From: a virus | Reading direction: 5' to 3' (one strand) | IMG/VR virus record: IMGVR_UViG_3300045988_147821 | Span: 1-64,000 of that record | DNA length: 64,000 nt | Shown: positions 955 through 62,878 of the stretch, in pieces | Layout of the letters: each line of letters starts with the position of its first letter | How positions within the stretch are numbered: position 1 is the stretch's first letter | The notes under the pieces: generated by a model | What the model saw: only the letters and a program-made list of their open reading frames with translations | Database searches by the model: none | Told to the model about the DNA's origin: nothing | Made by a program: the position numbers and the translations under genes

Positions 955-956
955 AA

Positions 957-1459: not shown

Positions 1460-1461
1460 AT

Positions 1462-1866: not shown

Positions 1867-1867
1867 A

Positions 1868-2220: not shown

Positions 2221-2235
2221 CGTAAACAAAAATTA

Positions 2236-2683: not shown

Positions 2684-2702
2684 ATTTTATACGTTTTGAT
2701 AG

Positions 2703-3097: not shown

Positions 3098-3109
3098 GGG
3101 CAAACATTC

Positions 3110-3256: not shown

Positions 3257-3297
3257 TATTCACCTCCTTGGTTTTTATTTTCTCTCTTAAATCCATA

Positions 3298-47242: not shown

Positions 47243-47246
47243 AATG

Positions 47247-47924
47247 TTATTTTGCAAGATAACAATCCCGAATCTTAAGCGAACATTTTTGTGATGGACG
47301 TTCAGCTTCAATGAACCAAAATGATGATTCAAGATAATCATCATTACACATGTAAACCATTTCCGTTATCGGATCAACGTTAAAATAAATGTCGCTATCA
47401 TCAAAAAACGTTTCTTCATACAATTCAACGGTATATGTTCCTTCCCGTTCGTCCATAGGATATTTATTGCATTCATTCTTCGAGAAAAATGTCAATGGTT
47501 TACTATCTAAAGACTTTATAGTAGAAGCAAAATCACAAAGTTGATTATAAGAGAAATTTGTTTTTCTTTTGCCGTAAGTCAAAAGATATTCAGCGGCAAC
47601 CAATCTAGTTGCCGCTCCAATTGATAAAATATCAACCATTTTAACGTACCTTGTATTTGCTTTAGGAATAAAATAATCCTTTCCATTTTTAGTCAAACAA
47701 GAATAAGTGGATAAGACAAGAAGATCTTGTCCCTGCCGGAGTAATATAGACCTAAATACTTCCTCATCGAATTTAAATGCAACGATTTTATCATTACAAA
47801 TCTTATTTTGCTTAATATCATAAGTATATATCTGGAAGTCACAAGAAAACTTTACTTCATCGTATCTTCCTTTATAAGGTTTTAAAGTGCTGTCCAAAGG
47901 ATAAGCTACAAATACATTAAACAT
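47247..47924 (-). CDS. hypothetical protein (225 aa)
   Basis: ATG ORF in the co-directional chain. Confidence 0.55.
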   Translation of the reverse strand: MFNVFVAYPLDSTLKPYKGRYDEVKFSCDFQIYTYDIKQNKICNDKIVAFKFDEEVFRSILLRQGQDLLVLSTYSCLTKNGKDYFIPKANTRYVKMVDILSIGAATRLVAAEYLLTYGKRKTNFSYNQLCDFASTIKSLDSKPLTFFSKNECNKYPMDEREGTYTVELYEETFFDDSDIYFNVDPITEMVYMCNDDYLESSFWFIEAERPSQKCSLKIRDCYLAK

Positions 47925-47935
47925 GGCAATAGGAA

Positions 47936-48295
47936 TTATTCGTTTATTATTTCAGTTTTATTATTTTGATTGCGATACTTTTGAGGAAAACGAAAATACT
48001 GTTTACACACCCAAAACAATTCTTTCATGGGAACAATAGGAGAATCAGGACATCTAAATTCATTTTCCATCGGAGCAACAACAATATGATTAAAACACGC
48101 CCTTACAAAAAAGGAATTGTAGGAATAAACATCCTTGTTGCCTTTTGTGTCGACAAAAAGAACTTTTGGCGAATTAAGACACACATCAATGAACATGATT
48201 GCATCATCCTTGCAATTCATTTTACAGATAACGGTAGAGCATAACGGGAACTTCCCTATGTTTTTGCTCTTTTTGGGTAACTTCTTTTGTTTCAT
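47936..48295 (-). CDS. hypothetical protein (119 aa), first gene of the long minus-strand block
   Basis: ATG ORF. Its upstream region lacks a TAnnTTTG box but carries three direct TTCGGTTATTT repeats. Confidence 0.55.
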   Translation of the reverse strand: MKQKKLPKKSKNIGKFPLCSTVICKMNCKDDAIMFIDVCLNSPKVLFVDTKGNKDVYSYNSFFVRACFNHIVVAPMENEFRCPDSPIVPMKELFWVCKQYFRFPQKYRNQNNKTEIINE

Positions 48296-48321
48296 TTATA
48301 CTCAATTAATGTTTGAAAATT

Positions 48322-48381
48322 CATTATTTCGGTTATTTTCATTTACTACTTCGGTTATTTCATTCATTATTTCGGTTATTT
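48322..48381 (-). repeat. three direct copies of the (CATTA)TTTCGGTTATTT motif
   Basis: CATTATTTCGGTTATTT at 48322-48338 and 48365-48381 (17/17 identical), with TTCGGTTATTT at 48350-48360 between them. 27-86 nt upstream of ATG 48295. Confidence 0.8.
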
Positions 48382-48570
48382 TATCGTTTTTAGAGCTTAC
48401 AAGCACCTTAAACCCAATTTATGTAATGAAAAAAATGAAAATAATGTAAAAATTTTTCGTTTCGCCCGTATCAAAAACAACTTTATATCTATTCCCTTTT
48501 ATAACAATTGATTGTTGAAATCTATGATATTCCAATATCATTCAAAAACTAATTGTTACATTCCAAGAAC

Positions 48571-48678
48571 CCGGTTGTTGAAAGCACAGACTATATCCCC
48601 ATAGGGGAACTGTATTAATCTATTATAAGTCATTGAAATATAATAGGATACAGTGCCTGTGCTTTCAACTTTAACCGG
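48571..48678. ncRNA. candidate structured RNA element (three-way-junction-like); strand undetermined
   Basis: CCGGTTGTTGAAAGCACAG (48571-48589) pairs with CTGTGCTTTCAAC..AACCGG (48657-48678). It encloses the hairpins TCCCC-ATA-GGGGA (48596-48608) and CTATTATA..TATAATAG (48620-48646). Flanked by 13-bp direct repeats ATTGTTACATTCC (48552, 48727). Confidence 0.3.
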
Positions 48679-49054
48679 ATAATGGTAAGAACGATAGATA
48701 TAAAGTTGTTTTGTTGTCAACCGAATATTGTTACATTCCTGTCACCCGTATTTTATAGTTGGGATAAGACTGTTTTTGAAAAACCGTGCATCGCTCGCAC
48801 ATCTGAAACCTGCTTATCCTTTCGAGTCTTTGGTCCTGTTTCAAAAGAACCCACCTGGCATCTCGATTTCGCACTACCAACCCTACCGTCAGGTTATCCC
48901 GTGGAGTAAGGTATTTCTCAATCTTATGCGCCACCGTTAAGTCTTATCCGTCCACATAAGAAATAGACTTTCTTTTCCGTGTGCGATTCTATATGACCTC
49001 GATAGGGTAATACACCTCATTTCTGCAATAATATTACCTCGGAATACCACGCTA

Positions 49055-49167
49055 TAAAAAAGAAAGTCTGTAATGAATGCCCCATCATATCATTACAGAC
49101 AATATAGAAAAGTTCTATCGAACCATCTTTTACTATGTTGTTTGTATTGACTATGGGGCGTCAATTA
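49055..49167 (-). ncRNA. candidate ~110-nt sRNA (orphan promoter-terminator unit)
   Basis: Bounded by a full-consensus promoter (49174-49206) and an 11-bp hairpin plus T-tract (49054-49100). No ATG-initiated ORF inside. Confidence 0.35.
49066..49100 (-). terminator. rho-independent terminator
   Basis: GTCTGTAATGA (49066-49076) pairs with TCATTACAGAC (49090-49100), an 11-bp perfect stem followed on minus by TTTCTTTTTTAT. Confidence 0.6.
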
Positions 49168-49173
49168 CTGATG

Positions 49174-49206
49174 CAAAGATACAGTGGATTATGTGATATA
49201 GCCAAA
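49174..49206 (-). promoter_or_regulatory. full Bacteroides-type promoter TTTG-N21-TATCTTTG
   Basis: On minus, TTTG (49206-49203), a 21-nt spacer, then TATCTTTG (49181-49174). No protein-coding gene lies downstream before the terminator. Confidence 0.55.
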
Positions 49207-49226
49207 AATCAATTGAATTTTTTAGT

Positions 49227-49234
49227 TATATTTG
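49227..49234 (+). promoter_or_regulatory. Bacteroides-type -7 box TATATTTG
   Basis: Exact TAnnTTTG, 35 nt upstream of ATG 49270. Confidence 0.55.
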
Positions 49235-50909: not shown

Positions 50910-51012
50910 GACAATTTAAATTTTACTCCCACATTATTTAAATAAAATGTTATCTGTATGTTAATTTAATGTTAAAACATGAAATTATTTTTGGATAATT
51001 AAAGTAACCAAT

Positions 51013-51020
51013 TAAATTTG
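51013..51020 (+). promoter_or_regulatory. Bacteroides-type -7 box TAAATTTG
   Basis: Exact TAnnTTTG, 33 nt upstream of ATG 51054. Head of the plus-strand operon. Confidence 0.55.
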
Positions 51021-51053: not shown

Positions 51054-51518
51054 ATGGAAACAAGAATAACAATAGCGCAAATGGATGAAGCGTTGGAGAA
51101 ATTCAAGCAGAAGATATCATCCGATTTCATAGTAGGAGGAAGTCTTGCCCTCTATCATCACGGATTCGAGTGCACTCCCGGTGACATTGACATGGAGATT
51201 GAAATCGGAGAGGGTGACGGGAACATAATTGAAACGCTGTCCGTGCTCAATGAAACCTATTACGGCAACAATGATGCGAGCAGGTATCCTACAACGGAGC
51301 ACCATTACAGATTCAGTTTCCACGGTGTCATATTTGACGTGTGGGCAGTAAACAGGTTCAGTTATAAAGGATACATGCTATCCATTGACGGAACACGTTA
51401 TGCGGACGTGATGAGCGTCCTAAGGGCGAAACGCAAGATAGGAAGAACAAAGGACGTCAATTCCATTGCCGATTACGCATCACAGATATTATCCCTGTTA
51501 AAGGAGGACAAGCAATGA
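51054..51518 (+). CDS. Pol-beta-superfamily nucleotidyltransferase-fold protein (154 aa)
   Basis: FIVGGSLALYHHGFECTPGDIDMEI gives the G-G-S...x-x-D-h-D-h NTase signature. C-terminal KRKIGRTKDVNSI is typical of small Lnu/AbiEii-like NTases (from memory). Confidence 0.55.
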   Translation: METRITIAQMDEALEKFKQKISSDFIVGGSLALYHHGFECTPGDIDMEIEIGEGDGNIIETLSVLNETYYGNNDASRYPTTEHHYRFSFHGVIFDVWAVNRFSYKGYMLSIDGTRYADVMSVLRAKRKIGRTKDVNSIADYASQILSLLKEDKQ

Positions 51519-51688
51519 AACGTTTTCTGGCCACATTGTTCATATTGGCGGTATCGTTCATACTGATGTCTATCCTGTTCATGCCGGAAGAAATTCCTGA
51601 TGTTGATAAAAACATAAAAGAGAATTTTGACTATTCAAATGATAATTGTAACTTTGCCACCAAAACTTTAAACAATATTTTAAAATGA
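51515..51688 (+). CDS. small signal-peptide/TM protein (57 aa)
   Basis: ATGA overlaps on both sides (51515 and 51685). MKRFLATLFILAVSFILMSILFM hydrophobic N-terminus. Below the track cutoff. Confidence 0.45.
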   Translation: MKRFLATLFILAVSFILMSILFMPEEIPDVDKNIKENFDYSNDNCNFATKTLNNILK

Positions 51689-52023
51689 ACAAGATAAAAC
51701 AGCTATTGAGATGCCGGGGATTGAAGGCGAAGGATATGGCGGAAGCGTTGCAGCTTTCCGAAACAAGGATGAGCCAGATATCGAACGGTGCTTCCACAAC
51801 GGAAGAAACGAAAAGACGGATATGTGAATGGATAGGGGAACCGTTATGGATAGTGTTCCCGGAAGATTACCCCGACATGGCGGGGATGGTGGAGAAGGGA
51901 AATTGTGACAAGGTATCCATCACAAGTACGGGCAACAACCCCTATTTCTTTACGGCTACGGCCAAGATAGACGGGAAGCCCGTATATCTGGAAGGTGTCG
52001 CCCATAAAGTTGAGAAGGCATGA
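51685..52023 (+). CDS. XRE-family helix-turn-helix transcriptional regulator (112 aa)
   Basis: LRCRGLKAKDMAEALQLSETRMSQISNGAS is a Cro/CI-type HTH pattern. Confidence 0.7.
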   Translation: MNKIKQLLRCRGLKAKDMAEALQLSETRMSQISNGASTTEETKRRICEWIGEPLWIVFPEDYPDMAGMVEKGNCDKVSITSTGNNPYFFTATAKIDGKPVYLEGVAHKVEKA

Positions 52024-52277
52024 TTGACATACGTGAATTGAGAATCGGTCAGACGGTAAGGTTTGACCAGGGCTTCGGAACGATAGAGGGTCTTAGAAGC
52101 ACACGGTACATGGAGTGGGATACGGGTGACAAGACAGGTACGGTGACCGTCAGGGACGTATCGGGAGTGTATTACCTGTGTGATCTGGAGGAAATATCCA
52201 TCCCCTCACGGGAAGAGATAGACGGATTCCTCAAAGTGGTGGACGACATAAGGAACGGTTTTTACGAAAATGAATGA
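52020..52277 (+). CDS. hypothetical protein (85 aa)
   Basis: ATG ORF with ATGA overlaps on both sides. Confidence 0.5.
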   Translation: MIDIRELRIGQTVRFDQGFGTIEGLRSTRYMEWDTGDKTGTVTVRDVSGVYYLCDLEEISIPSREEIDGFLKVVDDIRNGFYENE

Positions 52278-52432
52278 CCGATATGGGAAACAGAAGAAGG
52301 ATAAGACCGGGATATGTGAAAGTATGGGAGCAGAAAGCGAAAAAACGCGGAACTGCAACCCTTACAAGCGATAACAGTAAGGACAAACTATTAAAACTAT
52401 TTGGTGCCTATGGAAAAGGAATAGAGAAATGA
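52274..52432 (+). CDS. hypothetical basic protein (52 aa)
   Basis: ATG 52274 overlaps the TGA of the previous gene, and its own TGA overlaps the next ATG. MTDMGNRRRIRPGYVKVWEQKAKKRG... Below the track cutoff. Confidence 0.4.
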   Translation: MTDMGNRRRIRPGYVKVWEQKAKKRGTATLTSDNSKDKLLKLFGAYGKGIEK

Positions 52433-52584
52433 GAACGCGCGGTCCGATTCCGAATGAATCATTTTATAAACATAAAAACATAAAAAGTGATAATTATCAG
52501 GAACCGCAATATTTACGGAAACGGATTGTGTACGGGTGTGGACCGTATGGGTGGCACCCGTTTAAAACCTTAAAAACCGAATGA
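52429..52584 (+). CDS. hypothetical protein (51 aa)
   Basis: ATGA-coupled. MRTRGPIPNESFYKHKN...GCGPYGWHPFKTLKTE. Below the track cutoff. Confidence 0.4.
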   Translation: MRTRGPIPNESFYKHKNIKSDNYQEPQYLRKRIVYGCGPYGWHPFKTLKTE

Positions 52585-52588
52585 TTAT

Positions 52589-52813
52589 ATGAGAACAATA
52601 AAGGAAACAACAAGGAAACTGCTTGAATTTTTCGAGATGGAAAAATTGACTGTAAAGGACATGCTAAGGGCATTGTACTTCTCCCTTTCACTCGTGAACA
52701 TCGTCATAATGGGAGGAATAGGATCGTCATGGACACTCATGATCGCCCTTGCCGTATTCATACACGCCACATGGCAGTTCGTAAAGATAGGGAGGAACCT
52801 GCAAGATGAATGA
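52589..52813 (+). CDS. small membrane protein (74 aa)
   Basis: ATG ORF. LYFSLSLVNIVIMGGIGSSWTLMIALAVFIHATW is hydrophobic. Confidence 0.5.
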   Translation: MRTIKETTRKLLEFFEMEKLTVKDMLRALYFSLSLVNIVIMGGIGSSWTLMIALAVFIHATWQFVKIGRNLQDE

Positions 52814-53186
52814 GTTCGGAAAGATATGTACGGAGGTGAACACCCGTATAGTACAGGACACGGTGTGGTTCTCCTATTACAGGATAACGGACGATGATCC
52901 GTTCGGGATAGACAATTACGTCAACGAGTTTGTCGCACGCATAGGAAGGGAAAATGGAAGGAAGTTCAAGTTCCGTGTCCTCATGAACCGCAACACCCAT
53001 GACAGGCTGAACGAAGCCTATTCAAGAAGGATACCCATGTTCGACCAGGGACAAGAGGAACCCGTAAGGAAGGTGGATATCAGGATAATCATATCCATGA
53101 CAGGTTCGGCAGTAACCGTAACGGAAAACATGGCACTCGAAGATGACATCATAAGAATAGAAGCAACCAAAATACAGAAGATATGA
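52806..53186 (+). CDS. hypothetical protein (126 aa)
   Basis: ATG ORF with an 8-nt overlap upstream and a 4-nt overlap downstream. Confidence 0.55.
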   Translation: MNEFGKICTEVNTRIVQDTVWFSYYRITDDDPFGIDNYVNEFVARIGRENGRKFKFRVLMNRNTHDRLNEAYSRRIPMFDQGQEEPVRKVDIRIIISMTGSAVTVTENMALEDDIIRIEATKIQKI

Positions 53187-53593
53187 AAAAGCTGAAAACA
53201 GGAAAAGAAAGGATGTTCGCGATGGCAGACGCATTCACTGCATCCATCATGCTGGTATTGACCAAGGAATCACTCGTCTATATAGGGGATGAAAACCTGT
53301 ACGTGTCGGAGGACGGAGAAGTGTCAAGACATGAGATAACGGGTGCCATGGCACTTGCAATGACAGAAGTGATGGACCAGATAGGGCTTGGCAACGGCAA
53401 GCGGCCCACAAAACTCAACGAACTCCTACACATCCTTACCGATACCGTCATAGACATGATATCCGACAGGTGCGTGGAGATGGCAAGACAGGAAATGGGC
53501 GCGCTACCCAATGACAGGGAGAAGGAAGAATCCACGGAGAACAATATCGAAATGCCCATGATATTCAACAACGACAACCAGAAACCCAACTGA
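53183..53593 (+). CDS. hypothetical protein (136 aa)
   Basis: ATG ORF in the coupled chain. Confidence 0.55.
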   Translation: MKKLKTGKERMFAMADAFTASIMLVLTKESLVYIGDENLYVSEDGEVSRHEITGAMALAMTEVMDQIGLGNGKRPTKLNELLHILTDTVIDMISDRCVEMARQEMGALPNDREKEESTENNIEMPMIFNNDNQKPN

Positions 53594-53606
53594 AAATAAA
53601 CACACA

Positions 53607-53861
53607 ATGATAACGGTTATAATAAGAAACGACAGGTTCCGCATATTCATGACGGACAATATCAACGAACAGCCGATAGAGTTCGTATCGAACAGTGAAT
53701 CAAAATATGTCATGGGATTCACCAACCATAACAAACGGGTGCGGATATGGAAGATGGGAAGAAACACACCCTACGATCAGATGGTGAATCAAATGACGGA
53801 TGATAATGTCGTGTTCGATGCACCCTACAACAATACCTGTATAATAGACAGGAGGGAATAA
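53607..53861 (+). CDS. hypothetical protein (84 aa)
   Basis: ATG ORF, last gene of the plus-strand operon. Confidence 0.5.
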   Translation: MITVIIRNDRFRIFMTDNINEQPIEFVSNSESKYVMGFTNHNKRVRIWKMGRNTPYDQMVNQMTDDNVVFDAPYNNTCIIDRRE

Positions 53862-53977
53862 ATTGCAAAAAACAGAAAGTGGTGAATGATTAGGAAAAGT
53901 GATATAGGAATAGGGAGGGGGCAACAGGATATGTTTTTTGTCCATTAATGTTTTTACCAAAAACCTATGCAAAAACA

Positions 53978-54010
53978 GGTAACGGTGTCCGTCACGGACG
54001 GTACGTTACC
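53978..54010 (+). other. GC-rich two-tier stem-loop
   Basis: GGTAACG..GTCCG tca CGGAC..CGTTACC (7+5 bp). Followed by ATTTCCCC, so not a classical terminator. Confidence 0.4.
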
Positions 54011-54083
54011 ATTTCCCCAAACAGCAACAGGCAACTTGTAATAATTCTCCATAATAAATGATTCTTTTTATAGTTTAGATTTG

Positions 54084-54126
54084 GATGCAGGATATGTCGT
54101 GATGATATGATCCTGCATTGTTTTTG
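54084..54126 (+). terminator. rho-independent terminator of the plus-strand operon
   Basis: ATGCAGGAT (54085-54093) pairs with ATCCTGCAT (54110-54118), followed by TGTTTTTG. Confidence 0.6.
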
Positions 54127-54131
54127 TATGT

Positions 54132-54163
54132 ATAACCGAAATAATGCCATTTCGGTTATTTTT
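54132..54163 (+). terminator. palindromic ATAACCGAAAT/ATTTCGGTTAT hairpin plus T-run (also an inverted pair of the CATTATTTCGGTTAT motif)
   Basis: 11-bp stem (54132-54142 / 54149-54159), 6-nt loop, then TTTT. The left arm plus loop is the reverse complement of the 15-mer found at 48322 and 48365. Confidence 0.5.
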
Positions 54164-54203
54164 ATGAAAAACACGTCCACGCTATCATGGGAACAATGAT
54201 TGT

Positions 54204-54293
54204 GGCAAAAAGAATAGGGTGAGCATTACACCCACCCTATGATACGGAAATCGAAAATAATAGTACCAAAATAACTACTGAAAGAAAATATGA
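54204..54293 (-). ncRNA. candidate ~90-nt sRNA (orphan promoter-terminator unit)
   Basis: TATATTTG box on minus (54300-54307), then ~50 nt without an ATG, then the hairpin ATAGGGTG/CACCCTAT (54214-54240), then TCTTTTTGCC. Confidence 0.35.
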
Positions 54294-54299
54294 CTACCG

Positions 54300-54307
54300 C
54301 AAATATA
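54300..54307 (-). promoter_or_regulatory. Bacteroides-type -7 box TATATTTG (GTTG 20 nt upstream)
   Basis: Exact TAnnTTTG on minus inside the ORF-free island. Confidence 0.45.
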
Positions 54308-54931
54308 GGACATCCATCCCATATATGCAACACCCGTGGGGTATATCGCCCGTTTCATTTCCCGGAAAAATTTTGGAATAGGAATGGTAAGCCAAAAGGT
54401 TTCGGCAGGAAGGAAGAGAGGACATCACCCATGGGGGTAAAATGCGGTTTTTGTTTTTCCGAAAAATTTTAAGGTCCAAAAAGGTATTTCGGGGAATATA
54501 GGGAGAGAGGGTGTTTGTTGCTAAGCACGACACCCCGACTTCCTCGTTTCATAGTGTTTTGCTTCTCCAGGCATTACACCCGCATATACCCTATTTTAAG
54601 CCCTTACACACAAGGATCACCCGTTTTCCATACTGTTACCCATCCATTGCCACATTGTTCCCGTAACATCATTAAAACGGCTCGTACCCTATGTGTGTCG
54701 CCCTATCGGGAATGCGGTTTTTGCGTGTCCTGTGGTAGGGTGTGCCTTTCCCGATTATCATATAGTAAATTATTATAACAGGGTCAAAAACAGGGGTGTT
54801 TTCATTAAGTTACTGATATTCAGACGATTAAGCCAAAAAATCGTTGCATCCGCCCTTATATGCAAATCGAAGCATTGATAGTAATAATATAGGACAAATC
54901 ATTGTTTTGTGATGCGTGTGTACACGCGTGT

Positions 54932-54960
54932 GTGCTGCATATACGAATGTATTGCAGCAC
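54932..54960. other. stem-loop GTGCTGCAtATAC gaat GTATTGCAGCAC
   Basis: 12 bp with one bulge. Adjacent to the GCGTGTGT direct repeat and the GTGTACAC palindrome (54914-54933). Confidence 0.5.
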
Positions 54961-54983
54961 GAAAGAATGTATATGTATATTAG

Positions 54984-55004
54984 GTACAATGTACAATGTA
55001 CAAA
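54984..55004. repeat. 7-bp tandem repeat GTACAAT x3
   Basis: GTACAAT GTACAAT GTACAAA read directly. Confidence 0.8.
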
Positions 55005-55185
55005 AATCGAATATCAGTAACCAACTAGATTATATACACAATTAGGCGGTTTTACGCGTATATGCAGACCATACCAGGAACGGCAATAACATGGAATAAT
55101 TGCCTGGTGATCGTGGAAAGGTGGGAATAGGATAAAAGGGGTAATTAGATGTTTTGGTTACTCCCAATGGCTTCCACGCTAGGCA

Positions 55186-55266
55186 AAAACCTATCAAAAC
55201 CTATCAAAACCTATCAATTCCTATTTCAAAACCATTCAAAAAACAGCCCTCAAATCATTCAAAACC
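55186..55266. repeat. 10-bp phased iteron-like array (CTATCAAAAC) plus CATTCAAAA repeats
   Basis: CTATCAAAAC at 55191 and 55201 (exact), CTATCAATTC at 55211, CTATTTCAAAAC at 55221, then CATTCAAAAAAC (55233) and CATTCAAAACC (55256). Followed by an AT-rich tract at 55268-55300. Confidence 0.75.
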
Positions 55267-55572
55267 GTATATCTACTACTATTACTATTATTATAATCCC
55301 TATTAATGTTGTTGGAACGTTATTCTATCATTTCCGGTTTACCTGGTGATTTATTCTACTGATTGAATGTAATACAGTATATTATATTGTGTTTTCGCTA
55401 TTATGCGGGTGAATTCCCTTGTGTTCCGTATTAGGGTGGTATATATGGGTGTATATAGATGTAGTTTCCCTGTGATAGTGATATACATGCGTCTTTTGTA
55501 TGGTATGGTGGTATTATTGTATGAATGTCTTTTTATTCCTATTTTTATTTTTGGTAAGATTTTTTGCTAAAA

Positions 55573-55594
55573 ACCGAAATAGTGTTATTTCGGT
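55573..55594 (-). terminator. ACCGAAATA/TATTTCGGT hairpin (T-run on minus strand)
   Basis: 9-bp stem, 4-nt loop. Minus strand continues TTTTTAGC. Same core as the cassette hairpins. Confidence 0.4.
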
Positions 55595-55651
55595 AAATTC
55601 ATTCAAAATGTGTTTCACATGGTATTGTAGACGTGATTTTTGCACAAAAAT

Positions 55652-55697
55652 AACAGGTACAAGGTGTTTATGTTTGTCTATTCCTTGTACCTGTTTT
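55652..55697. terminator. strong bidirectional terminator ending the 55757-64000 minus-strand block
   Basis: AACAGGTACAAGG (55652-55664) pairs with CCTTGTACCTGTT (55683-55695), 13 bp perfect. T-runs on both strands. 60 nt after stop 55757. Confidence 0.7.
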
Positions 55698-55756
55698 CAG
55701 ATAGTTTTTATAAATCATTGTATCATGATTATATTATTGCTATTTTGATTGATTGA

Positions 55757-56101
55757 TTAATAGGTGAGTTCCGCCAATACGTCCGTATTATATACGGGTA
55801 ACTGTTTTGCGTATCGTGTACGCCCGTCTAGGGGTGTTTCCGTGATAGTTAGTTCTAGTAATTTGTATATTGGTGTATTCCAGATAGGTTTTTCTAGGGC
55901 TTCTATTTCTTTGTACCTGGGCGAATCTATATATATACCTTTTGGACCGTGGTAAAACTGTTTAAAAAACGGGTGATCTTTATGTCTGCATACCAAATGA
56001 TAACTTATATGTTTATATGCTATATCCTTTACCGTTTTTGAGGCCGATTTACAAATATATTGGCTACCTGTTTTGCTGTTTTTTACTGTTACTAGTATCA
56101 T
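55757..56101 (-). CDS. hypothetical protein (114 aa)
   Basis: ATG ORF, last gene before the bidirectional terminator. Confidence 0.55.
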   Translation of the reverse strand: MILVTVKNSKTGSQYICKSASKTVKDIAYKHISYHLVCRHKDHPFFKQFYHGPKGIYIDSPRYKEIEALEKPIWNTPIYKLLELTITETPLDGRTRYAKQLPVYNTDVLAELTY

Positions 56102-56141
56102 AATGTTTTTTGTTTTAATATTAAACTATTTCGATATGTTT

Positions 56142-56369
56142 TTATTTTTGCGTCAATATATCTATTACCCTATCGATTTCCCGTTTTGCTTCTTTAATGG
56201 TCTTATGCGCATACTTTATATTTTTTGGAAATGTAGGGATATTAGGAAAATTAATTAGATACATTTTCGTTTTATAGCCGCAAAAGCAATAATGTATTAT
56301 ATATCCTTTATAAATCATATCTTTTTGTTTTTTATGGATAATATATCGGTATTGATTGATATCTTTCAA
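56142..56369 (-). CDS. hypothetical protein (75 aa; or 58 aa from ATG 56318)
   Basis: The listed start is a TTG; the first ATG is at 56318. Confidence 0.4.
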   Translation of the reverse strand: MKDINQYRYIIHKKQKDMIYKGYIIHYCFCGYKTKMYLINFPNIPTFPKNIKYAHKTIKEAKREIDRVIDILTQK

Positions 56370-56390
56370 TAGAGGGCTTTATTTTGCCTT

Positions 56391-56693
56391 CTATTGGTGT
56401 TTTTGGATAGAGAATTGCACACCGTCAAGTATATATTTTGCGTGCTCTTTAGCCGCTTGCTGTTTTTCTTGTCTGGTGGGTGTTATTCCGTCATACTTGT
56501 ACAATAGTTTGGCGGCTTCTCTGATTATACTTTTCATTGCGCTGCAATTTGCAAGGTATTCTATTGATGGCTGTATGCCCTTGTTTACCTTCTTAATTAT
56601 GCAATTTTGCAGCCATGTTGTAATATCGTATATTTCCCGCGTATTGCGTATATACATTGCAAGTAAATTAGGTATGTCGTTTCTTGTTTCCAT
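56391..56693 (-). CDS. hypothetical protein (100 aa)
   Basis: ATG ORF (METRND..) downstream of cassette A. Confidence 0.55.
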   Translation of the reverse strand: METRNDIPNLLAMYIRNTREIYDITTWLQNCIIKKVNKGIQPSIEYLANCSAMKSIIREAAKLLYKYDGITPTRQEKQQAAKEHAKYILDGVQFSIQKHQ

Positions 56694-56804
56694 AATGTTA
56701 CGTTTTTTAATTGTTATTGTTTTGTTTCTGTTTTTCGATATAGTCGGTTATCTGTATGGATAGGTACAAGCAACCTAATAATATTAATGTTTCAATCATA
56801 GCAT

Positions 56805-56960
56805 GTATTTTTTAATTGTTCGTTAATCGTTTTTTTCAATCACATTGCAAAGGTAAGGATAAAAACCGAAATAACAACTATTTCGGGAAATTATTTTTGT
56901 TAATAAATGTTTAATGATAGGTAAAACGTTGAAATTGAGTGAGTTATGAACTATCAAAAA
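56805..56960 (-). repeat. terminator+promoter cassette, copy A
   Basis: Near-identical to copies B and C. Contains the hairpin CCGAAATA acaac TATTTCGG (56866-56886, TTTTT on minus) and the TACCTTTG -7 box (56848-56855). Its last 14 nt (TGAACTATCAAAAA) are shared with copy C only. Confidence 0.85.
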
Positions 56961-57255
56961 CATTATTCAAAACGTATATACGCTCGTTTTTATGTAAATA
57001 ATATAGGTAGTGATTATATTCCCATGTGCATTTAATTCGCCTTATGTTGATGCTCTTATGATACTTATATCTAATATATCGCTCGTGCTGCATTATACAC
57101 TGATTGACGGATGCAACGTATATTATTGGTATTCCGTGTTTTTTGCAATGGTTAAGTATAAGATTAATTTCTCGAGCGATTATTATGTACGGTGTAATGG
57201 TACGGGCATCTACTATATAGTAGGTATGCCCGTCTATATTGGTAGTCTGTATCAT
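56944..57255 (-). CDS. hypothetical protein (103 aa)
   Basis: ATG ORF. Its last 5 codons lie inside cassette A. Confidence 0.55.
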   Translation of the reverse strand: MIQTTNIDGHTYYIVDARTITPYIIIAREINLILNHCKKHGIPIIYVASVNQCIMQHERYIRYKYHKSINIRRIKCTWEYNHYLYYLHKNERIYVLNNVFDSS

Positions 57256-57761
57256 TGCTCTAGATACCCGTTTTTTTGCAAAAATTCATTTAGATCAATT
57301 TCCGAATAATCTACAAAATTAGATTCCATTCTACTATTATTGCAGATCCACCCGTATATAATGTTAAGCAAATCATTGTCTAGCCTATTATAGTTGACAT
57401 ATTGTTGTGCGGCTTCCATTATTATATCAAATTTCATTTCGGTATAATATTGTCCTAGATAACAATCAAAATCTAGTATATCACTATTTTTTATAAAGTC
57501 GCGCAAATCTTTTGCAGGCTCTCCAAAAATAAACGCGTTTTCACCGTTCCAGGATGTTTTTTCATGTACTATATTTTCCGGGTAATATTCTTTGAAATAA
57601 GATATTATAACCTTGTCTAAAAATGATCCACCGTAATCGGTGTACGCGAAATTAAGGTATATATCACTATGTTTGTCTTTTGCTTCCTGTAATAAACTTT
57701 CAGAAGCCACGTATGTTTGTTTGCTTGAAAAATCTACTAGGTTGTTATTGTTCGTTCTCAT
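57252..57761 (-). CDS. hypothetical protein (169 aa)
   Basis: ATG ORF with an ATGA overlap with the downstream gene. Confidence 0.55.
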   Translation of the reverse strand: MRTNNNNLVDFSSKQTYVASESLLQEAKDKHSDIYLNFAYTDYGGSFLDKVIISYFKEYYPENIVHEKTSWNGENAFIFGEPAKDLRDFIKNSDILDFDCYLGQYYTEMKFDIIMEAAQQYVNYNRLDNDLLNIIYGWICNNSRMESNFVDYSEIDLNEFLQKNGYLEQ

Positions 57762-57926
57762 ATCTTTAATTATTTTAAATTATTACTTTTGATTTTTCCA
57801 CACTCTATAATCATTATCACTTTCAAAACACATATAACCGTCAAATACTTTGGCTACATGTGCGGGGGTAAACGGGCAAATTTTAATTGCCCGATACCTT
57901 GTTTCAACTTGCGCAAAAAAACGTTC

Positions 57927-58826
57927 TCATAATTTCTTTAATTTAAAGGTTATGTTTTCGGGAAGTTTAGTTTTGTCAACTGTTTTGATAAATTCGTCAA
58001 ATTGTTCTTGCGTTACTTTTTCTTCGTAATCATTCCAATTAAATACAAGTTCATTGCTATGATTGTAGTATATTACGTTTTTAATGGGAATCCCGGTGTC
58101 AAGAAGGGCTAACCTAACTAGCTTTCTATTTTCCGCTTTTTGTGTTTCTTTTTCGAAATCTGCAATTATTTCATTGCGTTTCTTCTCGTATTCTTCACGT
58201 TTTTTCTGGTCTTTTCGTGCCTGTATGGCTTCACTAGTATAATACCCTTCCTTAATTCTGTTTTCGATTAGTGTACGTTCTTCGTCCGTCAATTTTAATG
58301 CAAAACGTTCGCTTTCGGGTTTATACGGGTTTTCCCATGTGTTACCCGTCAATGCTTCTAATTGTTTGATAGCCTTTAAACTTTCTTGTTTCCAACGGTC
58401 TACGATCCCTAGGGTATATAGTAGGTGTTTAAAGTACAACTTATCCTCTGTATTATTACGTAATATATCGTATTCTGTTTCAGTGATACGTAGGTAGTTT
58501 ATTGCCTTTTCCTTGTCGCTGTTTACTAGGTGATATACTCCATTTTCAACGGGATACATTGGCTGCCCGTAATGGTTGCACAAATGTAGGTCAATAAATG
58601 TTTTAAACTCTGGGAAATACTTCAAAATTTCGTCGTGACAACAACCACTAGCACACCAAACGAAACGCCCGTTCCTACGTTTTTCATATATATCCGCTGT
58701 GATGCCCCAATCACATACACCATTTTTGCAACAATCATTTAAACTTATACGCACATTCATTTTGTAGGTTATTCCGTTCTCTACATAAAATTTTGTTACA
58801 TTGTAAGATAAATTCTTTGTTTCCAT
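57927..58826 (-). CDS. hypothetical Cys-rich protein (299 aa)
   Basis: The track ORF (to 58871) begins inside cassette B. The true start is probably ATG 58826 (METKNLSY..), homologous in position to the start after cassette C. Cys cluster CCKNGVCDW...CASGCCHDE...C. Confidence 0.55.
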   Translation of the reverse strand: METKNLSYNVTKFYVENGITYKMNVRISLNDCCKNGVCDWGITADIYEKRRNGRFVWCASGCCHDEILKYFPEFKTFIDLHLCNHYGQPMYPVENGVYHLVNSDKEKAINYLRITETEYDILRNNTEDKLYFKHLLYTLGIVDRWKQESLKAIKQLEALTGNTWENPYKPESERFALKLTDEERTLIENRIKEGYYTSEAIQARKDQKKREEYEKKRNEIIADFEKETQKAENRKLVRLALLDTGIPIKNVIYYNHSNELVFNWNDYEEKVTQEQFDEFIKTVDKTKLPENITFKLKKL

Positions 58827-58834
58827 AATTATAA

Positions 58835-58975
58835 GTATTTTTAATTGTTCGTTAATCGTTTTTTCAATCACATTGCAAAGGTAAGGATAAAAACCGAAAT
58901 AACAACTATTTCGGGAAATTATTTTTGTTAATAAATGTTTAATGATAGGTAAAACGTTGAAATTGAGTGAGTTAT
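58835..58975 (-). repeat. terminator+promoter cassette, copy B
   Basis: Hairpin 58894-58914, TACCTTTG box 58876-58883. Also shares the 5' UTR and first codons (..AATTATGGAAACAAAG) with copy C from 58816. Confidence 0.85.
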
Positions 58976-59283
58976 TTACGTTTAATTTTTTGCGTCCAAA
59001 TACGTTTTCTTCCTCCTAATGTGGCAGTTTTCACCCAAATATTATATAATTTACATTTAGGGTATAATTTACTGTTATTAAGTAACATTAAGTCGTTATT
59101 GCTTAATTCTTTCCACCCCCTAGATATAGGGGTATAACCTGTTAACTTAATACTTTCGGGGGCATTCTCTGATATGGTAAGCGTTTCAACTTCTATTGGG
59201 AAATTGTAATCTTTCATTCTGTTTAATGTATTGGAGCGTTTGGTCGCTCGTCTTAATATTACATTGATATTTTTTGCTTTCAT
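58972..59283 (-). CDS. hypothetical basic protein (103 aa)
   Basis: ATG ORF whose stop lies at the edge of cassette B. Confidence 0.55.
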   Translation of the reverse strand: MKAKNINVILRRATKRSNTLNRMKDYNFPIEVETLTISENAPESIKLTGYTPISRGWKELSNNDLMLLNNSKLYPKCKLYNIWVKTATLGGRKRIWTQKIKRK

Positions 59284-59297
59284 TATTGTATGATTTT

Positions 59298-59729
59298 TTA
59301 AATGTTATTTAAATATGATTTTGGAAGTAATGGAAAAACATTCAAAACTTCTTTAAAACTTATTTCTCCAAACTTTTCGATATATACGGAAAAATAACGT
59401 TCTTTCCGCCTACGATCAATAGTTATGCAGCTAGGTACGTCCTTTCGTTTTAACGTATTATAGTCGTTTGCGTGCTTTCTTACAAACTTAATCAATTCGG
59501 GCGTGTCTCTGTATAGTTTTATTATGTTTTGTGTCCTGGTGCCGTTATAATACACTCGTTTAACCTGTTTTTCGGGTAACTTGTGCCCGTCATAGCTTTT
59601 CCAAAACTTGATATTTTCCTTTATAATATTCAATGTGTCAATGCTTCTACTAGCTTTAAACGTTCCTATCTTAATACTTTCGTTTTCAAGGATAGGATAT
59701 AATTCTTTTTCTACATTCTGTTTTTTCAT
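59298..59729 (-). CDS. hypothetical protein (143 aa; track start 59756)
   Basis: ATG 59729 avoids overlap with the upstream gene (stop 59734). ATG 59756 is also possible. Confidence 0.5.
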   Translation of the reverse strand: MKKQNVEKELYPILENESIKIGTFKASRSIDTLNIIKENIKFWKSYDGHKLPEKQVKRVYYNGTRTQNIIKLYRDTPELIKFVRKHANDYNTLKRKDVPSCITIDRRRKERYFSVYIEKFGEISFKEVLNVFPLLPKSYLNNI

Positions 59730-59733
59730 AATG

Positions 59734-60006
59734 CTAAATATTTTCAGTGTAAACATAATTTCCTGTATTCACTTCTACAACTGACACGGTACCGCCCTTG
59801 TAATCGCCAAAATAGGTTGTATTGTCGTTCCTGTTTGCTTCAATCCATTGCATACAATATTCGTAAGTACCATTTATATACTTACAATTGCTTGCTGTGT
59901 CATCATTAAAAACCACGTCGTAAACTTGTTCGCAATTGGTTTCGGTTTTTTGTTTACAATCGTCTATCACTACCACGGCTTTTTGTGATATTCTCTTTGT
60001 TTCCAT
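59734..60006 (-). CDS. hypothetical protein (90 aa)
   Basis: ATG ORF (METKRIS..) directly downstream of cassette C. Confidence 0.55.
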   Translation of the reverse strand: METKRISQKAVVVIDDCKQKTETNCEQVYDVVFNDDTASNCKYINGTYEYCMQWIEANRNDNTTYFGDYKGGTVSVVEVNTGNYVYTENI

Positions 60007-60014
60007 AATTGTAA

Positions 60015-60169
60015 GTGTTTTTTAATTGTTCGTTAATCGTTTTTTCAATCACATTGCAAAGGTAAGGATAAAAACCGAAATAACAACTATTTCGGGAAAT
60101 TATTTTTGTTAATAAATGTTTAATGATAGGTAAAACGTTGAAATTGAGTGAGTTATGAACTATCAAAAA
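60015..60169 (-). repeat. terminator+promoter cassette, copy C
   Basis: Hairpin 60075-60095, TACCTTTG box 60057-60064. Retains TTATGAACTATCAAAAA, which in copy A is the 3' end of gene 56944..57255, although no gene precedes copy C. Confidence 0.85.
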
Positions 60170-60245
60170 TTTCGGTTTTTGATACGGTATATATTGCGTA
60201 CATGTATATTACACCTTATTATATATAGGGCGTTTGTGATAGAGA

Positions 60246-60281
60246 TCCTAGTCCTGGTCCTAGTCCTGGTCCTGGTCCTAG
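60246..60281. repeat. hexamer microsatellite (TCCTRG)x6
   Basis: TCCTAG TCCTGG TCCTAG TCCTGG TCCTGG TCCTAG read directly. Intergenic. Confidence 0.9.
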
Positions 60282-60387
60282 ACGATTGATAGTAAAAAAG
60301 TCGGACACATGAGGTGCCCGACTGGTGCACCCCCCCAGGGGCAGGAGAGGGTGTTGCACAAATTTTCGATAGGAGAGGGGAGATCTG

Positions 60388-60885
60388 CTATTCCTGGCCT
60401 CCCGTTTGGTTCAACCCCGCCTCCGCCATAATGATTTCCTTGACTTCGGTTTTCTTGATTGCCTTACAGGTGCACTCCTTCCCTACCCCGATAATCTCCT
60501 TGGCAGATTCAATCGCCTTTTCAGAGGCAAGAGATGAATCGGAAGCGAAGCACAGGACCTTGTGTGTCCGCGATTTCATTTTGCCCTTCACCTCTTCCAT
60601 ATATTCACAGGTGCACAGATACCATGCCCCATCAGCTTCTCCCCCACCCTTCTCGGACTTGGGAAGATACGTGTTTATTTTCATCTCACGTATCGGGAAT
60701 ACCCAGAACTCGCCTGTATCGCTTGACACTTCTTCTTCTTTTTCTATCACGGAAGTATGTTTCATCGCAAGCGTTTCAGCTTCCGTATAGTTTGCAGGGT
60801 CCATTACAAGGACGGTCTTTGATGTCTTTACCGATTCACCATCCACATTGTTCACGTAATAGTTGATTTTACATTCTAAATTCAT
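60388..60885 (-). CDS. DUF4494-like protein (165 aa)
   Basis: NLECKINYY...KTVLVMDPANYTEAETLA...GEFWVFPIRE...AWYLCTCEYMEE..GK.K.....VLCFASD resembles the F-E-C-K-V-x-Y...Y-L-V-D-A-x-S-F-T-E-A-E...G-E-F...W-F-K-x-K pattern of Bacteroidota DUF4494 proteins (from memory). The track start 60894 is a TTG; the first ATG is at 60885. Confidence 0.5.
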   Translation of the reverse strand: MNLECKINYYVNNVDGESVKTSKTVLVMDPANYTEAETLAMKHTSVIEKEEEVSSDTGEFWVFPIREMKINTYLPKSEKGGGEADGAWYLCTCEYMEEVKGKMKSRTHKVLCFASDSSLASEKAIESAKEIIGVGKECTCKAIKKTEVKEIIMAEAGLNQTGGQE

Positions 60886-61142
60886 TTTCCTCAAATTTTT
60901 ATGGTTAATAATTTATTTCACTTCCTCAAATACTTTATCAGTATATTTTGTTTCACTTCCTCATTCATCATTCACATCATCATCTTTTCCCCAACTTCCT
61001 CATCAACTTCCTCAAAAATATTTTTGTCACTTCCTCAAACACTTCCTCAACCGTTTCCTCATTACTTCCTCAATAGGAACGGAAACACTTCCTTAATGTC
61101 ACGGGAGATAAACATCAAGGTCATTTATGCCCGTTTTCCTCA
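60886..61142 (-). repeat. phased array of TGAGGAAG(TG) repeats (7 exact + 4 degenerate copies)
   Basis: Plus-strand CTTCCTCA starts at 60921, 60956, 60995, 61007, 61030, 61042 and 61065. One-mismatch copies start at 60886, 61054, 61088 and 61135. All share one orientation, with spacings of 11-12 bp or multiples. Confidence 0.9.
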
Positions 61143-61527
61143 TCACCCTAGTAAGACCCTGCCACGATATAAAAAGTGCCGTATCAAACAGGAAATTGGG
61201 CATTTTCATCCACAAAGATTTCGTGGTTATTTCCTCAATGTCCACCCTCATTCCATAAAACAGACCGATAGGACGTATCAGAACGCTTTCCTTGCTTGTA
61301 AAAACCTCACTTATCTTTCCTAGTGCCACGGAAGATATGTTCTTTCCCGGTATCAGGACAATAATGTCCTCACGTGGCATTTCAAGCATTTCCTCTATCT
61401 TTTCCGTTTCATCCTCAAAGAAGATATTGTTGTCACGACAAAGTTCAAGAGTGTACAGGACACTGTTGTTCTTCATGTGATCTATGAAAGCGTTACCCTT
61501 TTTATAGGAAAAATTCTTGTATATCAT
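61099..61527 (-). CDS. hypothetical protein (142 aa)
   Basis: ATG ORF whose 3' end overlaps the distal repeat copy. Confidence 0.55.
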   Translation of the reverse strand: MIYKNFSYKKGNAFIDHMKNNSVLYTLELCRDNNIFFEDETEKIEEMLEMPREDIIVLIPGKNISSVALGKISEVFTSKESVLIRPIGLFYGMRVDIEEITTKSLWMKMPNFLFDTALFISWQGLTRVMRKTGINDLDVYLP

Positions 61528-61532
61528 GGCCG

Positions 61533-61778
61533 TTATTCACTAAATATAATTTCTGCCGGGCGAATCCACAGTTTGTATGTGGGATATTTCTTTTCCACAT
61601 CATCTTCATTGTACACCTTTACGAACTTCACATCATCCTTAAGATGCTCGTATTTGTCCATCATGGTATCGAAATTCTTCTCAAATTCTTCCGGTGTGGA
61701 AGCCATATCCCCGAATGTTATCAATGCAGGCAAAACCTCATTAAACATTTCCAGTCCGTTTGCTCCTGTTGTTCTCAT
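61533..61778 (-). CDS. hypothetical protein (81 aa)
   Basis: ATG ORF. TATTTTTG box on minus at 61845-61852. Confidence 0.5.
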   Translation of the reverse strand: MRTTGANGLEMFNEVLPALITFGDMASTPEEFEKNFDTMMDKYEHLKDDVKFVKVYNEDDVEKKYPTYKLWIRPAEIIFSE

Positions 61779-61844
61779 TATGTTATCAAAATTTTAAATT
61801 AAACGATAAATCCGTGAATATGACAGGACAAATGAATCCCCGTC

Positions 61845-61852
61845 CAAAAATA
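61845..61852 (-). promoter_or_regulatory. Bacteroides-type -7 box TATTTTTG
   Basis: Exact TAnnTTTG on minus, 67 nt upstream of ATG 61778. A second box, TATCTTTG, lies at 61927-61934. Confidence 0.4.
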
Positions 61853-62021
61853 TAATTAAAAGTATAACGGGTTAATATTGTAAATAATAACAGGGTATCC
61901 GATTCCCATATCATATATCACGGATTCAAAGATAAATGTTTTGGTTTATGTCCGAACGATTCTATAACCTTTTTCGGACAGGAATTTTTTGATTACTAGC
62001 GTGTTCACCACCTCCTTTCCA

Positions 62022-62168
62022 TTATGATTGAAACTTCCGGGCAACGAATTTCTTATAGACCATAACCTGAAAATTTTTGTGTGTATGAACCCTCCCATAA
62101 AAATCATCAAGTTCATACACAGACTTGAAACACTTTTCATTGCCCTGCGGATTAATCAGTTTATACAT
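62022..62168 (-). CDS. hypothetical protein (48 aa); alternative frame is track ORF 61946..62140
   Basis: ATG 62168 lies 12 nt after the stop of 62180..62710 (MYKLINPQGNEKCFKSVYELDDFYGRVH..). It overlaps the 64-aa track ORF in another frame, and I cannot decide between them. Confidence 0.25.
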   Translation of the reverse strand: MYKLINPQGNEKCFKSVYELDDFYGRVHTHKNFQVMVYKKFVARKFQS

Positions 62169-62179
62169 ATATCTCTAGT

Positions 62180-62710
62180 TTATAGATTTTTGAAATAAAA
62201 ACCCATTCCATTTGCCGAATAAGCCTTCGTAACGCTGTCAAAAATACGCTTGTCTATATTCCCATCCATTGCATCATACCATTGGAAACAACAGTCATTA
62301 TCGGTAATAGGGTATATTTTCGGTCCTTTTGCAGTGTCTATGTCATTAGGATTGTCATATCTCATAAAATCAAATATGGTACTTTTTATTGCGAAACGGA
62401 ACATGGATTTATTCGGTGATTCAATAAACGAAATTCCTTCACGTTCACATACATATCTTATGACCGCTCTTATATTTTCAACCCATGATATAGGTTTGTC
62501 GGTGGCAATCCATATAGGATTATCCTGCTTTTTAAAGTTGTACAGGTCAAGTTCCGCAATGCCTATCAACTGGAAGGCAAACAGGGTGGAATATCCGGCT
62601 CTTCTTCCAAAATACACCGCATCATCATTTTCCCCGTCAAGACCGTTAAGGAAAATGCTGTGAAGTCTGTCTATGTCAAATTTCCCATTTGTAATATTAT
62701 AACTTCTCAT
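62180..62710 (-). CDS. hypothetical protein (176 aa)
   Basis: ATG ORF 49 nt downstream of a TATATTTG box. Confidence 0.55.
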   Translation of the reverse strand: MRSYNITNGKFDIDRLHSIFLNGLDGENDDAVYFGRRAGYSTLFAFQLIGIAELDLYNFKKQDNPIWIATDKPISWVENIRAVIRYVCEREGISFIESPNKSMFRFAIKSTIFDFMRYDNPNDIDTAKGPKIYPITDNDCCFQWYDAMDGNIDKRIFDSVTKAYSANGMGFYFKNL

Positions 62711-62758
62711 AATAGGGTAATTCTACGATTGTTTAAATTTGATTTTAATTTTGTGGTG

Positions 62759-62766
62759 CAAATATA
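62759..62766 (-). promoter_or_regulatory. Bacteroides-type -7 box TATATTTG
   Basis: Exact TAnnTTTG on minus upstream of ATG 62710. Confidence 0.5.
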
Positions 62767-62878
62767 GATATTATTTAAATTTTCACCAAATAAAATAGCA
62801 AATAATTTAAATAAAATGGAGCACTCCATTACGAAGCACCCCATTTCAACTAAAAAACAAAAATAAGATATGGTAAAG

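Follow-up and report, generated by a model that had tools for sequence, protein, structure and literature searches.

The stretch of viral DNA analysed here, called the window throughout, comprises positions 1 to 64,000 of the IMG/VR record IMGVR_UViG_3300045988_147821. Between positions 53862 and 55756 it contains a 1.9-kb island that lacks genes, the largest gene-free stretch in the ~84 kb that we inspected of a ~110-kb genome, and comparison with related contigs indicates a non-coding control module of several parts that has been conserved, not decaying filler. It is the meeting point of two transcription units. A small rightward operon (51054-53861), with products of 154, 112, 126, 136 and 84 amino acids (aa) and its own consensus promoter (50991-51020), runs into it from the left, and a long leftward early/DNA-metabolism unit reaches it from the right. 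The latter includes leftward NAD-ligase, SNF2 helicase and RNase H genes to the right of the window end, oriented in the same direction as the window genes (nearly all of which lie on the minus strand), and, downstream of these, a region of small genes (55757-64000) that runs into the island. Both units end at tandem intrinsic terminators, two per island edge. Among the proteins encoded next to the island, the only domain match is a weak helix-turn-helix in the 112-aa protein.

Among the proteins encoded by the window are a portal, a major head protein, a tail sheath and a 3177-aa baseplate-type protein, and the phage is an uncultured, myovirus-like gut phage of ~110 kb and Bacteroides type, with a contractile tail predicted from the sheath match. 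Contigs of its close relatives are typically 107-113 kb long. The portal shares only ~34% identity with those of the Bacteroides phages DAC19-23 and of SPO1-like phages, and the matches of the window to the DNA of known phages are short mosaics only, common to Bacteroides phages. For the island and for the 50-58 kb region, no DNA similarity was found among 50,697 phage records, and when 185,579 genomes of bacteria and archaea were scanned for exact matches to a conserved 25-mer, none came up. The tRNA/tmRNA search found none. The elements recognised within the island are as follows, from left to right, with strand given where one is assigned; H denotes a hairpin of the form CCGAAAT..ATTTCGG, nt nucleotides and ORF an open reading frame.

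53862-54083, plus strand: 3' untranslated tail of the rightward operon; the 84-aa gene stops at 53861.
54084-54126, plus strand: first plus-strand terminator, a 15-bp stem plus GTTTTTGT.
54132-54165, plus strand: second plus-strand terminator, built on hairpin H.
54204-54293, minus strand: predicted non-coding transcript of ~90 nt, with a U-rich body, a terminator hairpin (54240-54214) and a U-run; no ORF.
54300-54331, minus strand: orphan promoter GTTG-N20-TATATTTG, Bacteroidota-type, with the TTG counted from 54330.
54338-54530: tandem duplication of a ~96-nt unit, GGGGTA..TTTCC(C)G(G)AAAAATTTT.. with a purine-rich tail.
54516-54562: conserved block TTGCTAAGCACGACACCCC..ACTTCCTCGTTTCATAGTGTTTTGC, overlapping a hairpin at 54511-54537.
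54757-54905: the island's most conserved block, conserved across relatives including the divergent one described below, and unique in the window.
54912-54961: a pair of neighbouring hairpins, GCGTGTGTACACGC and GTGCTGCA-TATACGAATGTAT-TGCAGCAC, that lack a U-run on both strands.
54984-55004: GTACAAT microsatellite (a TRF-type repeat call, 2.9 copies), with 1-3 copies or a different sequence in relatives.
55139-55183: conserved block ending CCA(C/G)GCTAGGC, directly left of the array; mean pairwise identity 0.91, against 0.4-0.6 in its neighbours.
55184-55266: array of A-tract repeats (unit AAAACCTATC or a variant of it) that recur every 10-11 nt, 5.4 copies by TRF.
55270-55298: CTA/TTA trinucleotide microsatellite, with (CTA)n from 0 to 10 among relatives.
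55300-55560: AT-rich stretch (GC 0.27-0.35), G+T-rich on the plus strand.
55565-55594, minus strand: second minus-strand terminator, built on hairpin H.
55645-55695, minus strand: first minus-strand terminator, after the 114-aa gene; a 13-bp stem AACAGGTACAAGG/CCTTGTACCTGTT plus a U-run.
55717-55726, minus strand: gene-start relic ATGATACAAT.

The case for a functional module depends on how these parts are inherited. The island is kept in all 20 relatives in which the neighbouring operon occurs, in keeping with the first description of this DNA (made from its letters alone, and called here the sequence-only reading), which had judged the region likely to be functional. Close relatives, at 87-99% identity, are too similar to separate function from filler; among them, ORF intactness was scored in 11 aligned relatives and invariant runs over 20 sequences. 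A divergent relative, L175, has coding DNA 66-84% identical to that of the window, and was found only via a search with a 224-aa protein; searches with the holin gene, the DUF4494 gene and the 136-aa gene each gave close relatives only. At the equivalent place, L175 carries a gene-free island of 1.86 kb with its parts in matching order. On the left are two plus-strand terminators (hairpin and T-run, the first of different sequence), followed by a leftward promoter-terminator unit. The middle comprises two GGGGTA..CCGAAAAATTTT units, a TGCTAAGCAC..CATAGTGTTTTGC block, a CAAAAACAGGGGTG.. block and two adjacent hairpins. On the right follow GCTAGGCAAAAACC, A-tract repeats of other units, a 10-nt CCTAT-containing repeat, a GT-rich stretch and two minus-strand terminators. 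The stems of hairpin hp1, the minus-strand terminator, the 54931-54961 hairpin and hairpin hp2 have changed in sequence with their pairing kept, and the four folded segments of L175 have z values from -2.9 to -5.8. Because both the layout and the paired stems survive in this relative, the island does not appear to be neutral DNA.

The description of the island as free of ORFs held up: across the 18 mechanical ORFs (34-87 aa), the number of aligned relatives with an intact copy ranges from 1 to 9 of 11, whereas all 11 retain intact copies of the flanking genes for 136 and 84 aa. One-nucleotide indels are scattered across the island alignments, and indels relative to L175 break the frame in every block. 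Pseudogene remnants were sought with 75 six-frame island peptides, for which tblastn against all loci from outside the lineage gave no match, the rest of the window yielding two chance-level matches. The 54300-54750 segment is relatively GC-rich as had been noted (GC 0.45-0.50, against 0.27-0.40 elsewhere), a description that does not extend to the right third, which is AT-rich. Dispersed repeats, hairpins, the GTACAAT microsatellite and the 10-nt array all lie where the sequence-only reading had placed them, and its picture of a region packed with terminators is borne out by 10 terminator-like sites in 53000-56500, compared with 2.7 +/- 1.7 in shuffled sequences. In sliding-window folding, only the terminators, the hairpins within 54860-55019 and, weakly, 54460-54619 stand out, the rest having ordinary z. 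Within the 3' untranslated tail, a 37-aa ORF is intact in 3 of 11 relatives, a hairpin at 53978-54010 (GGTAACG..CGTTACC; z = -2.3) is invariant and is followed by a T-run on the minus strand, and the runs 53935-53956, 53977-53992 and 53994-54005 are invariant.

Five sites combine a G+C stem-loop with a following U-run in the manner of intrinsic terminators, namely two plus-strand and two minus-strand sites at the edges and the minus-strand site 54240-54204. The two successive plus-strand terminators fold as proposed (54084-54120 and 54132-54159, each with a T-run after it; joint z = -6.3), and a 25-nt invariant run (54075-54099) overlaps the first. The second is probably a back-up, because mismatches in its stem go uncompensated in L139, L158, L159 and L164. 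At the right edge, a pair of tandem minus-strand terminators (55695-55652 and 55594-55572; z = -6.0 for the pair) had escaped the sequence-only reading; the second of these is conserved in L175. Hairpin H occurs five times in the window, against 0.01 expected, with all copies falling within 54136-60095. Two of these form the island's inner terminators, and 54122-54193 is a ~80% inverted copy of 55569-55654, with the result that mirrored terminator modules bracket a 1.37-kb interior. An invertible segment between these flanks is unsupported, all 20 relatives being colinear.

The other three copies of H lie inside cassettes of ~160 nt (56788-56960, 58818-58975 and 59998-60169), which are identical over a 122-column core and have 90% mean column identity over a 212-column alignment. 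Each contains hairpin H and a U-run, a promoter GTTG-N19-TACCTTTG and a common leader, and sits upstream of a small minus-strand gene. Deletions run from copy to copy, joining 56960 to 59998 in L041 and 56947 to 58818 in L042. The H hairpins and the orphan promoter of the island are copies of parts of these cassettes. Composite elements of this kind are known from T4-like phages, in which PeSL cassettes, consisting of a terminator hairpin followed by an early promoter, are repeated between small accessory genes (PMC4122927, PMC2839356). The cassettes of the window resemble them in the composite of hairpin and promoter and in the copy-to-copy indels, whereas their sequence is unrelated and their promoter is of Bacteroidota type. 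This likeness explains the island flanks and the source of some parts, but not the conserved interior or the A-tract array.

Matches to TTG-N18-21-TAnnTTTG number 18 in the window, and at least 11 of them precede the start of a gene on the same strand by 20-60 nt, which suggests that the phage uses host-type (Bacteroidota) promoters; a scan for sigma-70-type promoters was uninformative (13 found, 15.4 expected). The orphan minus-strand promoter-terminator unit of the sequence-only reading is present, with a promoter that is not sigma-70-like but Bacteroidota-type and a terminator at 54240-54214. This promoter (54331-54300) stands alone in the window as a consensus promoter with no gene behind it, is the only consensus promoter of the island, and fits the Bacteroidota primary-sigma model (-33 TTTG / -7 TAnnTTTG) with three of four bases in the -33 element. 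As a promoter and a terminator around a stretch without an ORF, the unit has the layout of a small-RNA gene, and the prediction that it yields a non-coding RNA of ~90 nt is well supported; the predicted RNA folds with z = -3.0, its terminator lying ~60 nt past the promoter. The leftward unit of L175 has the same -7 box, which with the bases following it (CCTATATTTGCAATGTG) matches the promoter of the three cassettes, and its terminator stem, of different sequence, stands at the same distance (z = -2.9). Among close relatives, L136 has lost the -7 box and L159 carries an altered one, and the transcript body carries indels and is poorly conserved. In its consensus promoter, its strong terminator ~60 nt on, its U-rich unstructured body and its retention in L175, the unit resembles genes for trans-acting small RNAs, from which it differs in matching no Rfam family, in its poorly conserved body and in the missing -7 box of L136.

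Within the interior, the repeats AATGCGGTTTTTG and GCATTACACCC each occur twice, and the CCG(G)AAAAATTTT pair belongs to the ~96-nt tandem duplication, which has a third unit in L043, L139, L140 and L158 and whose unit cores are kept in L175. The block at 54516-54562 is near-invariant in the 20 sequences and kept in L175. The overlapping hairpin at 54511-54537 was recovered on folding (z = -2.3), and no compensating changes in it were seen. Inside the most conserved block, a 33-nt run (54764-54796; AGTAAATTATTATAACAGGGTCAAAAACAGGGG) is invariant in all 20 relatives. A structured RNA at 54791-54857, the best candidate fold, was rejected, having z = -0.6 and a covariation score reached by 57 of 500 shuffles; between 54823 and 54845, the substitutions compatible with wobble pairing point to the plus strand. 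The hairpin that had been pointed out at 54914-54960 is real in the folding analysis, the pair at 54912-54961 having z = -2.5. One of its G-C pairs becomes A-T between alleles, and the counterpart in L175 comprises two hairpins with different stems and two compensated pairs. L041 has lost 131 nt (54923-55053) between ACGCGT words.

Farther right, the GCTAGGCAAAAACC of the 55139-55183 block is kept in L175 and leads directly into the A-tract array. Nowhere else in the 64 kb are A-tracts so strongly phased with the helix: the array reaches a power of 4.4, compared with 1.7 in the A-run window that ranks next and 2.7 in the top T-run window, and the DNA of the array is predicted to be intrinsically curved. 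It is also hypervariable: in 15 complete relatives, we counted 4-15 tracts of four or more A, spanning 95-214 nt between anchors. The array is present in every allele and in L175 with differing unit sequences, whereas its period and position are kept. Across 55200-55450, the AT skew goes from ~+0.2 to -0.35, its sign flipping at the array, and the GC skew from -0.49 to +0.41; the GT-richness of the stretch that follows is shared by L175. Contigs of four relatives end inside the array and one scaffold has a gap there, 15 of 19 relatives reading through, and these ends are explained by the variable tandem repeat, which breaks assemblies.

The explanation that we prefer, at somewhat short of even confidence, is a composite one in which the island joins terminators and a small RNA to an interior DNA site that may be an origin. 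The 1.2-kb interior would act as DNA, not as folded RNA or protein-coding sequence, and, to judge from its layout, its most likely role is that of an origin of replication, a tentative assignment that we would expect to fail rather more often than to hold. In such an origin, the curved repeat array would be the binding site of a phage protein, the adjoining AT-rich stretch would open, and the flanking terminators would keep the converging RNA polymerases out of the site; slippage would change the array, giving copy numbers that differ between strains. The origin-like layout consists of a conserved anchor block, a curved array, an AT/GT-rich stretch and nearby hairpins, placed where the replication-gene unit ends. 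Several phages that infect lactic acid bacteria have their origin in repeat-rich non-coding DNA that closes the early/replication module, and iteron-type origins, including lambda ori and those of plasmids and of lactococcal and streptococcal phages, have tandem repeats with units of 17-22 nt on bent DNA by an AT-rich stretch. The island shares with iteron origins its tandem repeats on predicted bent DNA, its AT-rich neighbour, its hairpins, its non-coding status and its position downstream of replication genes, and differs in that its units are of 10-11 nt and highly variable in number and that neither an initiator gene nor a DnaA box was found. Membership in the iteron-origin class cannot be claimed with the repeats and AT-rich neighbour present and the initiator and DnaA boxes missing.

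Several observations count against an origin or against the composite explanation as a whole. No DnaA box was found in the island when up to one mismatch was allowed, and there is no recognisable replication-initiator gene or domain among the proteins encoded beside it. The repeat unit is shorter than that of classical iterons, the unstable copy number of the array (4-15 tracts) also fits unconstrained slippage, and 55300-55560 is no richer in AT than the neighbouring gene region. Convergent transcription is commoner at termini than at origins, and the ~26 kb of the ~110-kb genome that lie beyond the ~84 kb inspected may hold a better candidate. Single strains also lose parts (L041 lacks 54923-55053 and L136 the -7 box of the orphan promoter), and the clade is shallow apart from L175, so that conservation rests on one deep comparison.

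The main rival, which we regard as possible though rather unlikely, holds that the island is a transcriptional buffer filled with debris, in which the four edge terminators are the whole function, the interior is leftover or duplicated cassette material that earlier recombination left behind, and the arrays reflect neutral slippage; such material would be tolerated as read-through must stay away from the opposing operon. This would fit the right edge, where recombination has left a scar and only the first 10 nt of a gene, as well as the H hairpins and flank modules that copy cassette parts, the inverted relationship between 54122-54193 and 55569-55654, and the degenerate CCGAAA..TTTCGG pairs held by the ~96-nt units. 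The free copy-number variation of arrays and microsatellites and the internal deletions in single strains point the same way. It is harder to reconcile with a 1.9-kb element in which the order of about ten parts is retained, and stems have changed in sequence but still pair, at ~30% divergence in L175, or with 33 consecutive nt that do not vary among 20 genomes while columns nearby do, and the tblastn search with six-frame peptides found no pseudogene remnants. That the island is instead a locus for non-coding RNAs, namely the ~90-nt leftward RNA and perhaps transcripts with the 54912-54961 hairpins and the 54757-54905 block, acting as regulators of host or phage mRNAs or as decoys, seems improbable. 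The ORF-less promoter and terminator kept in L175, the two conserved hairpins that lack a U-run and have compensating changes, and the plus-strand bias of the substitutions at 54823-54845 would suit it, whereas the island has a single consensus promoter and ordinary z over most of its length, the -7 box is gone from L136 and the hairpin pair from L041, and the A-tract array has no RNA logic. A search of the whole window against Rfam at the gathering score gave no match, relaxing the limit to E of 10 for the island brought up only matches of 15-22 bits, no better than chance, and the covariation test was not significant. Of the structured RNAs suggested by the sequence-only reading, the small promoter-terminator unit with its predicted RNA thus stands, and a large structured RNA does not, given the lack of an Rfam match, the ordinary z and the failure of the best fold in its controls.

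A packaging initiation (pac) site or a terminal-repeat boundary, as first considered for this island, or a T5-like injection-stop region is very unlikely. Regions of the pac type typically have curved DNA and repeat clusters, as here, and the contig ends and scaffold gap in the array could be taken as a sign of a terminus; yet no terminase gene was found within ~10 kb, most relatives read through, the ends are all confined to the variable tandem repeat, and the other contig breaks of the lineage fall at other repeats. The injection-stop (iss) region of T5 and its relatives comprises 1662 bp of non-coding DNA with direct repeats, among them a 9-copy array, inverted repeats and palindromes whose order is kept in diverged relatives; it lies inside the terminal repeat, at the end of small early genes, has ~8 ordered DnaA boxes and is thought to be cis-acting DNA (10.1101/866236). 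As a gene-free region of similar size with ordered repeats and hairpins in a large virulent phage, it is the nearest analogue of the island in form, whereas the island has no DnaA boxes, no sign of a terminal position and no sequence similarity to it, and belongs to a phage of a host from another phylum. The two phages also differ in tail type, that of T5 being non-contractile and that of the window phage predicted to be contractile. An essential cis site of injection-stop type, or a checkpoint on incoming or replicating DNA at which a host or phage protein binds the hairpins and array, is in our view a far-fetched role for the island; strain-to-strain repeat number would then tune the interaction with that protein or escape from it. 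We give scarcely any credence to hidden genes for very small proteins. A 51-aa ORF with a GTG start (54511-54666) is intact in 9 of 11 close relatives, but no ORF is intact in all relatives, the indels relative to L175 break the frame in every block, and matches of the peptides to proteins of the fetched loci or to the rest of the window are at chance level only.

The individual parts of the island (terminators, promoter-terminator unit and repeat arrays) are all of familiar kinds, and we regard it as a good lead, not a surprise. The lineage (~107-113 kb) occurs in many human-gut metagenomes and is without a cultured or characterised relative, and few origins or small RNAs of Bacteroidota phages have been mapped so far. 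If borne out, a defined origin or phage small RNA would be useful for vectors, for gut-phage engineering and for reading the infection programme. The hypervariable array, for its part, is a ready strain marker and a known assembly break point of this phage.

The right border of the island, at 55717, is judged from sequence comparison to be a recombination scar. Homology to 37 contigs of a ~93-kb group stops there; in these, a gene beginning ATGATACAATTTAC, intact in L003, directly follows the 114-aa gene, and the window retains only 10 nt of it. The 114-aa gene itself is dispensable, because L159 lacks most of it (compared with window 55810-56314). These 37 contigs, from a different phage group (loci L001-L038; ~91-96 kb, circularly permuted, with a primase-helicase), carry 107-3269 and 55717-58863 of the window at 83-95% DNA identity. 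The two blocks are adjacent in the 37 contigs and separated in the window by ~53 kb that include the structural genes, the rightward operon and the island, which indicates a recent exchange of modules between unrelated gut phages.

The window start was rejected as a physical genome end: positions 1-72 are a gene start that is near-identical in many unrelated phage contigs, which points to an assembly break. They form the start of a Sequestin/DUF2829-type gene, recur at 93-100% identity in the Bacteroides phages BS-TP2 and BF1-TP2 and in 17 viral contigs that are unrelated in other respects, and are likely an inter-genome repeat that breaks assemblies. One contig, L167 (ERZ28658812 scaffold_69, 142,995 bp), has a second set of small terminase, large terminase and portal after the block to the left of the window start, and is probably chimeric or a different genome. 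IMGVR_UViG_3300045988_146598 (140,912 bp) is under the same suspicion from its similar length alone.

Among the structural genes, a minus-strand ORF of 680 aa (38848-40890) has a LAGLIDADG domain at aa 500-569, and L175 lacks exactly 39004-40034, a pattern suggestive of an intein, or of a homing endonuclease inserted into a gene of the structural module. L175 carries an IS605 OrfB/TnpB (Cas12f-like) gene (L175:16944-17133) beside its structural genes. Adjoining the portal is a gene for a 497-aa protein (42824-44317, minus strand) with BACON and fibronectin-like domains, which contains internal DNA repeats (42920-43045 resembles 43227-43384) and in which the contig of at least one relative breaks. 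In most close relatives, 47243-49227 is swapped for unrelated DNA. A second ORF-poor stretch lies at 48296-49134, at a divergent gene junction, with tandem repeats of 21 nt (x3) and 9 nt (x3) at 48319-48382, and is a possible alternative regulatory or origin region. Finally, L129 (holin 60% identical) has its own strongly purine-rich gene-free stretch of 1.46 kb (L129:888-2350), rejected as a positional homologue since neither its flanking genes nor its sequence is homologous to the island; it is rich in ATAGA, ATAGG and ATCAAG words and has 12 GATC sites, and, as a post hoc observation, shares with the island an excess of the word ATAGG/CCTAT.

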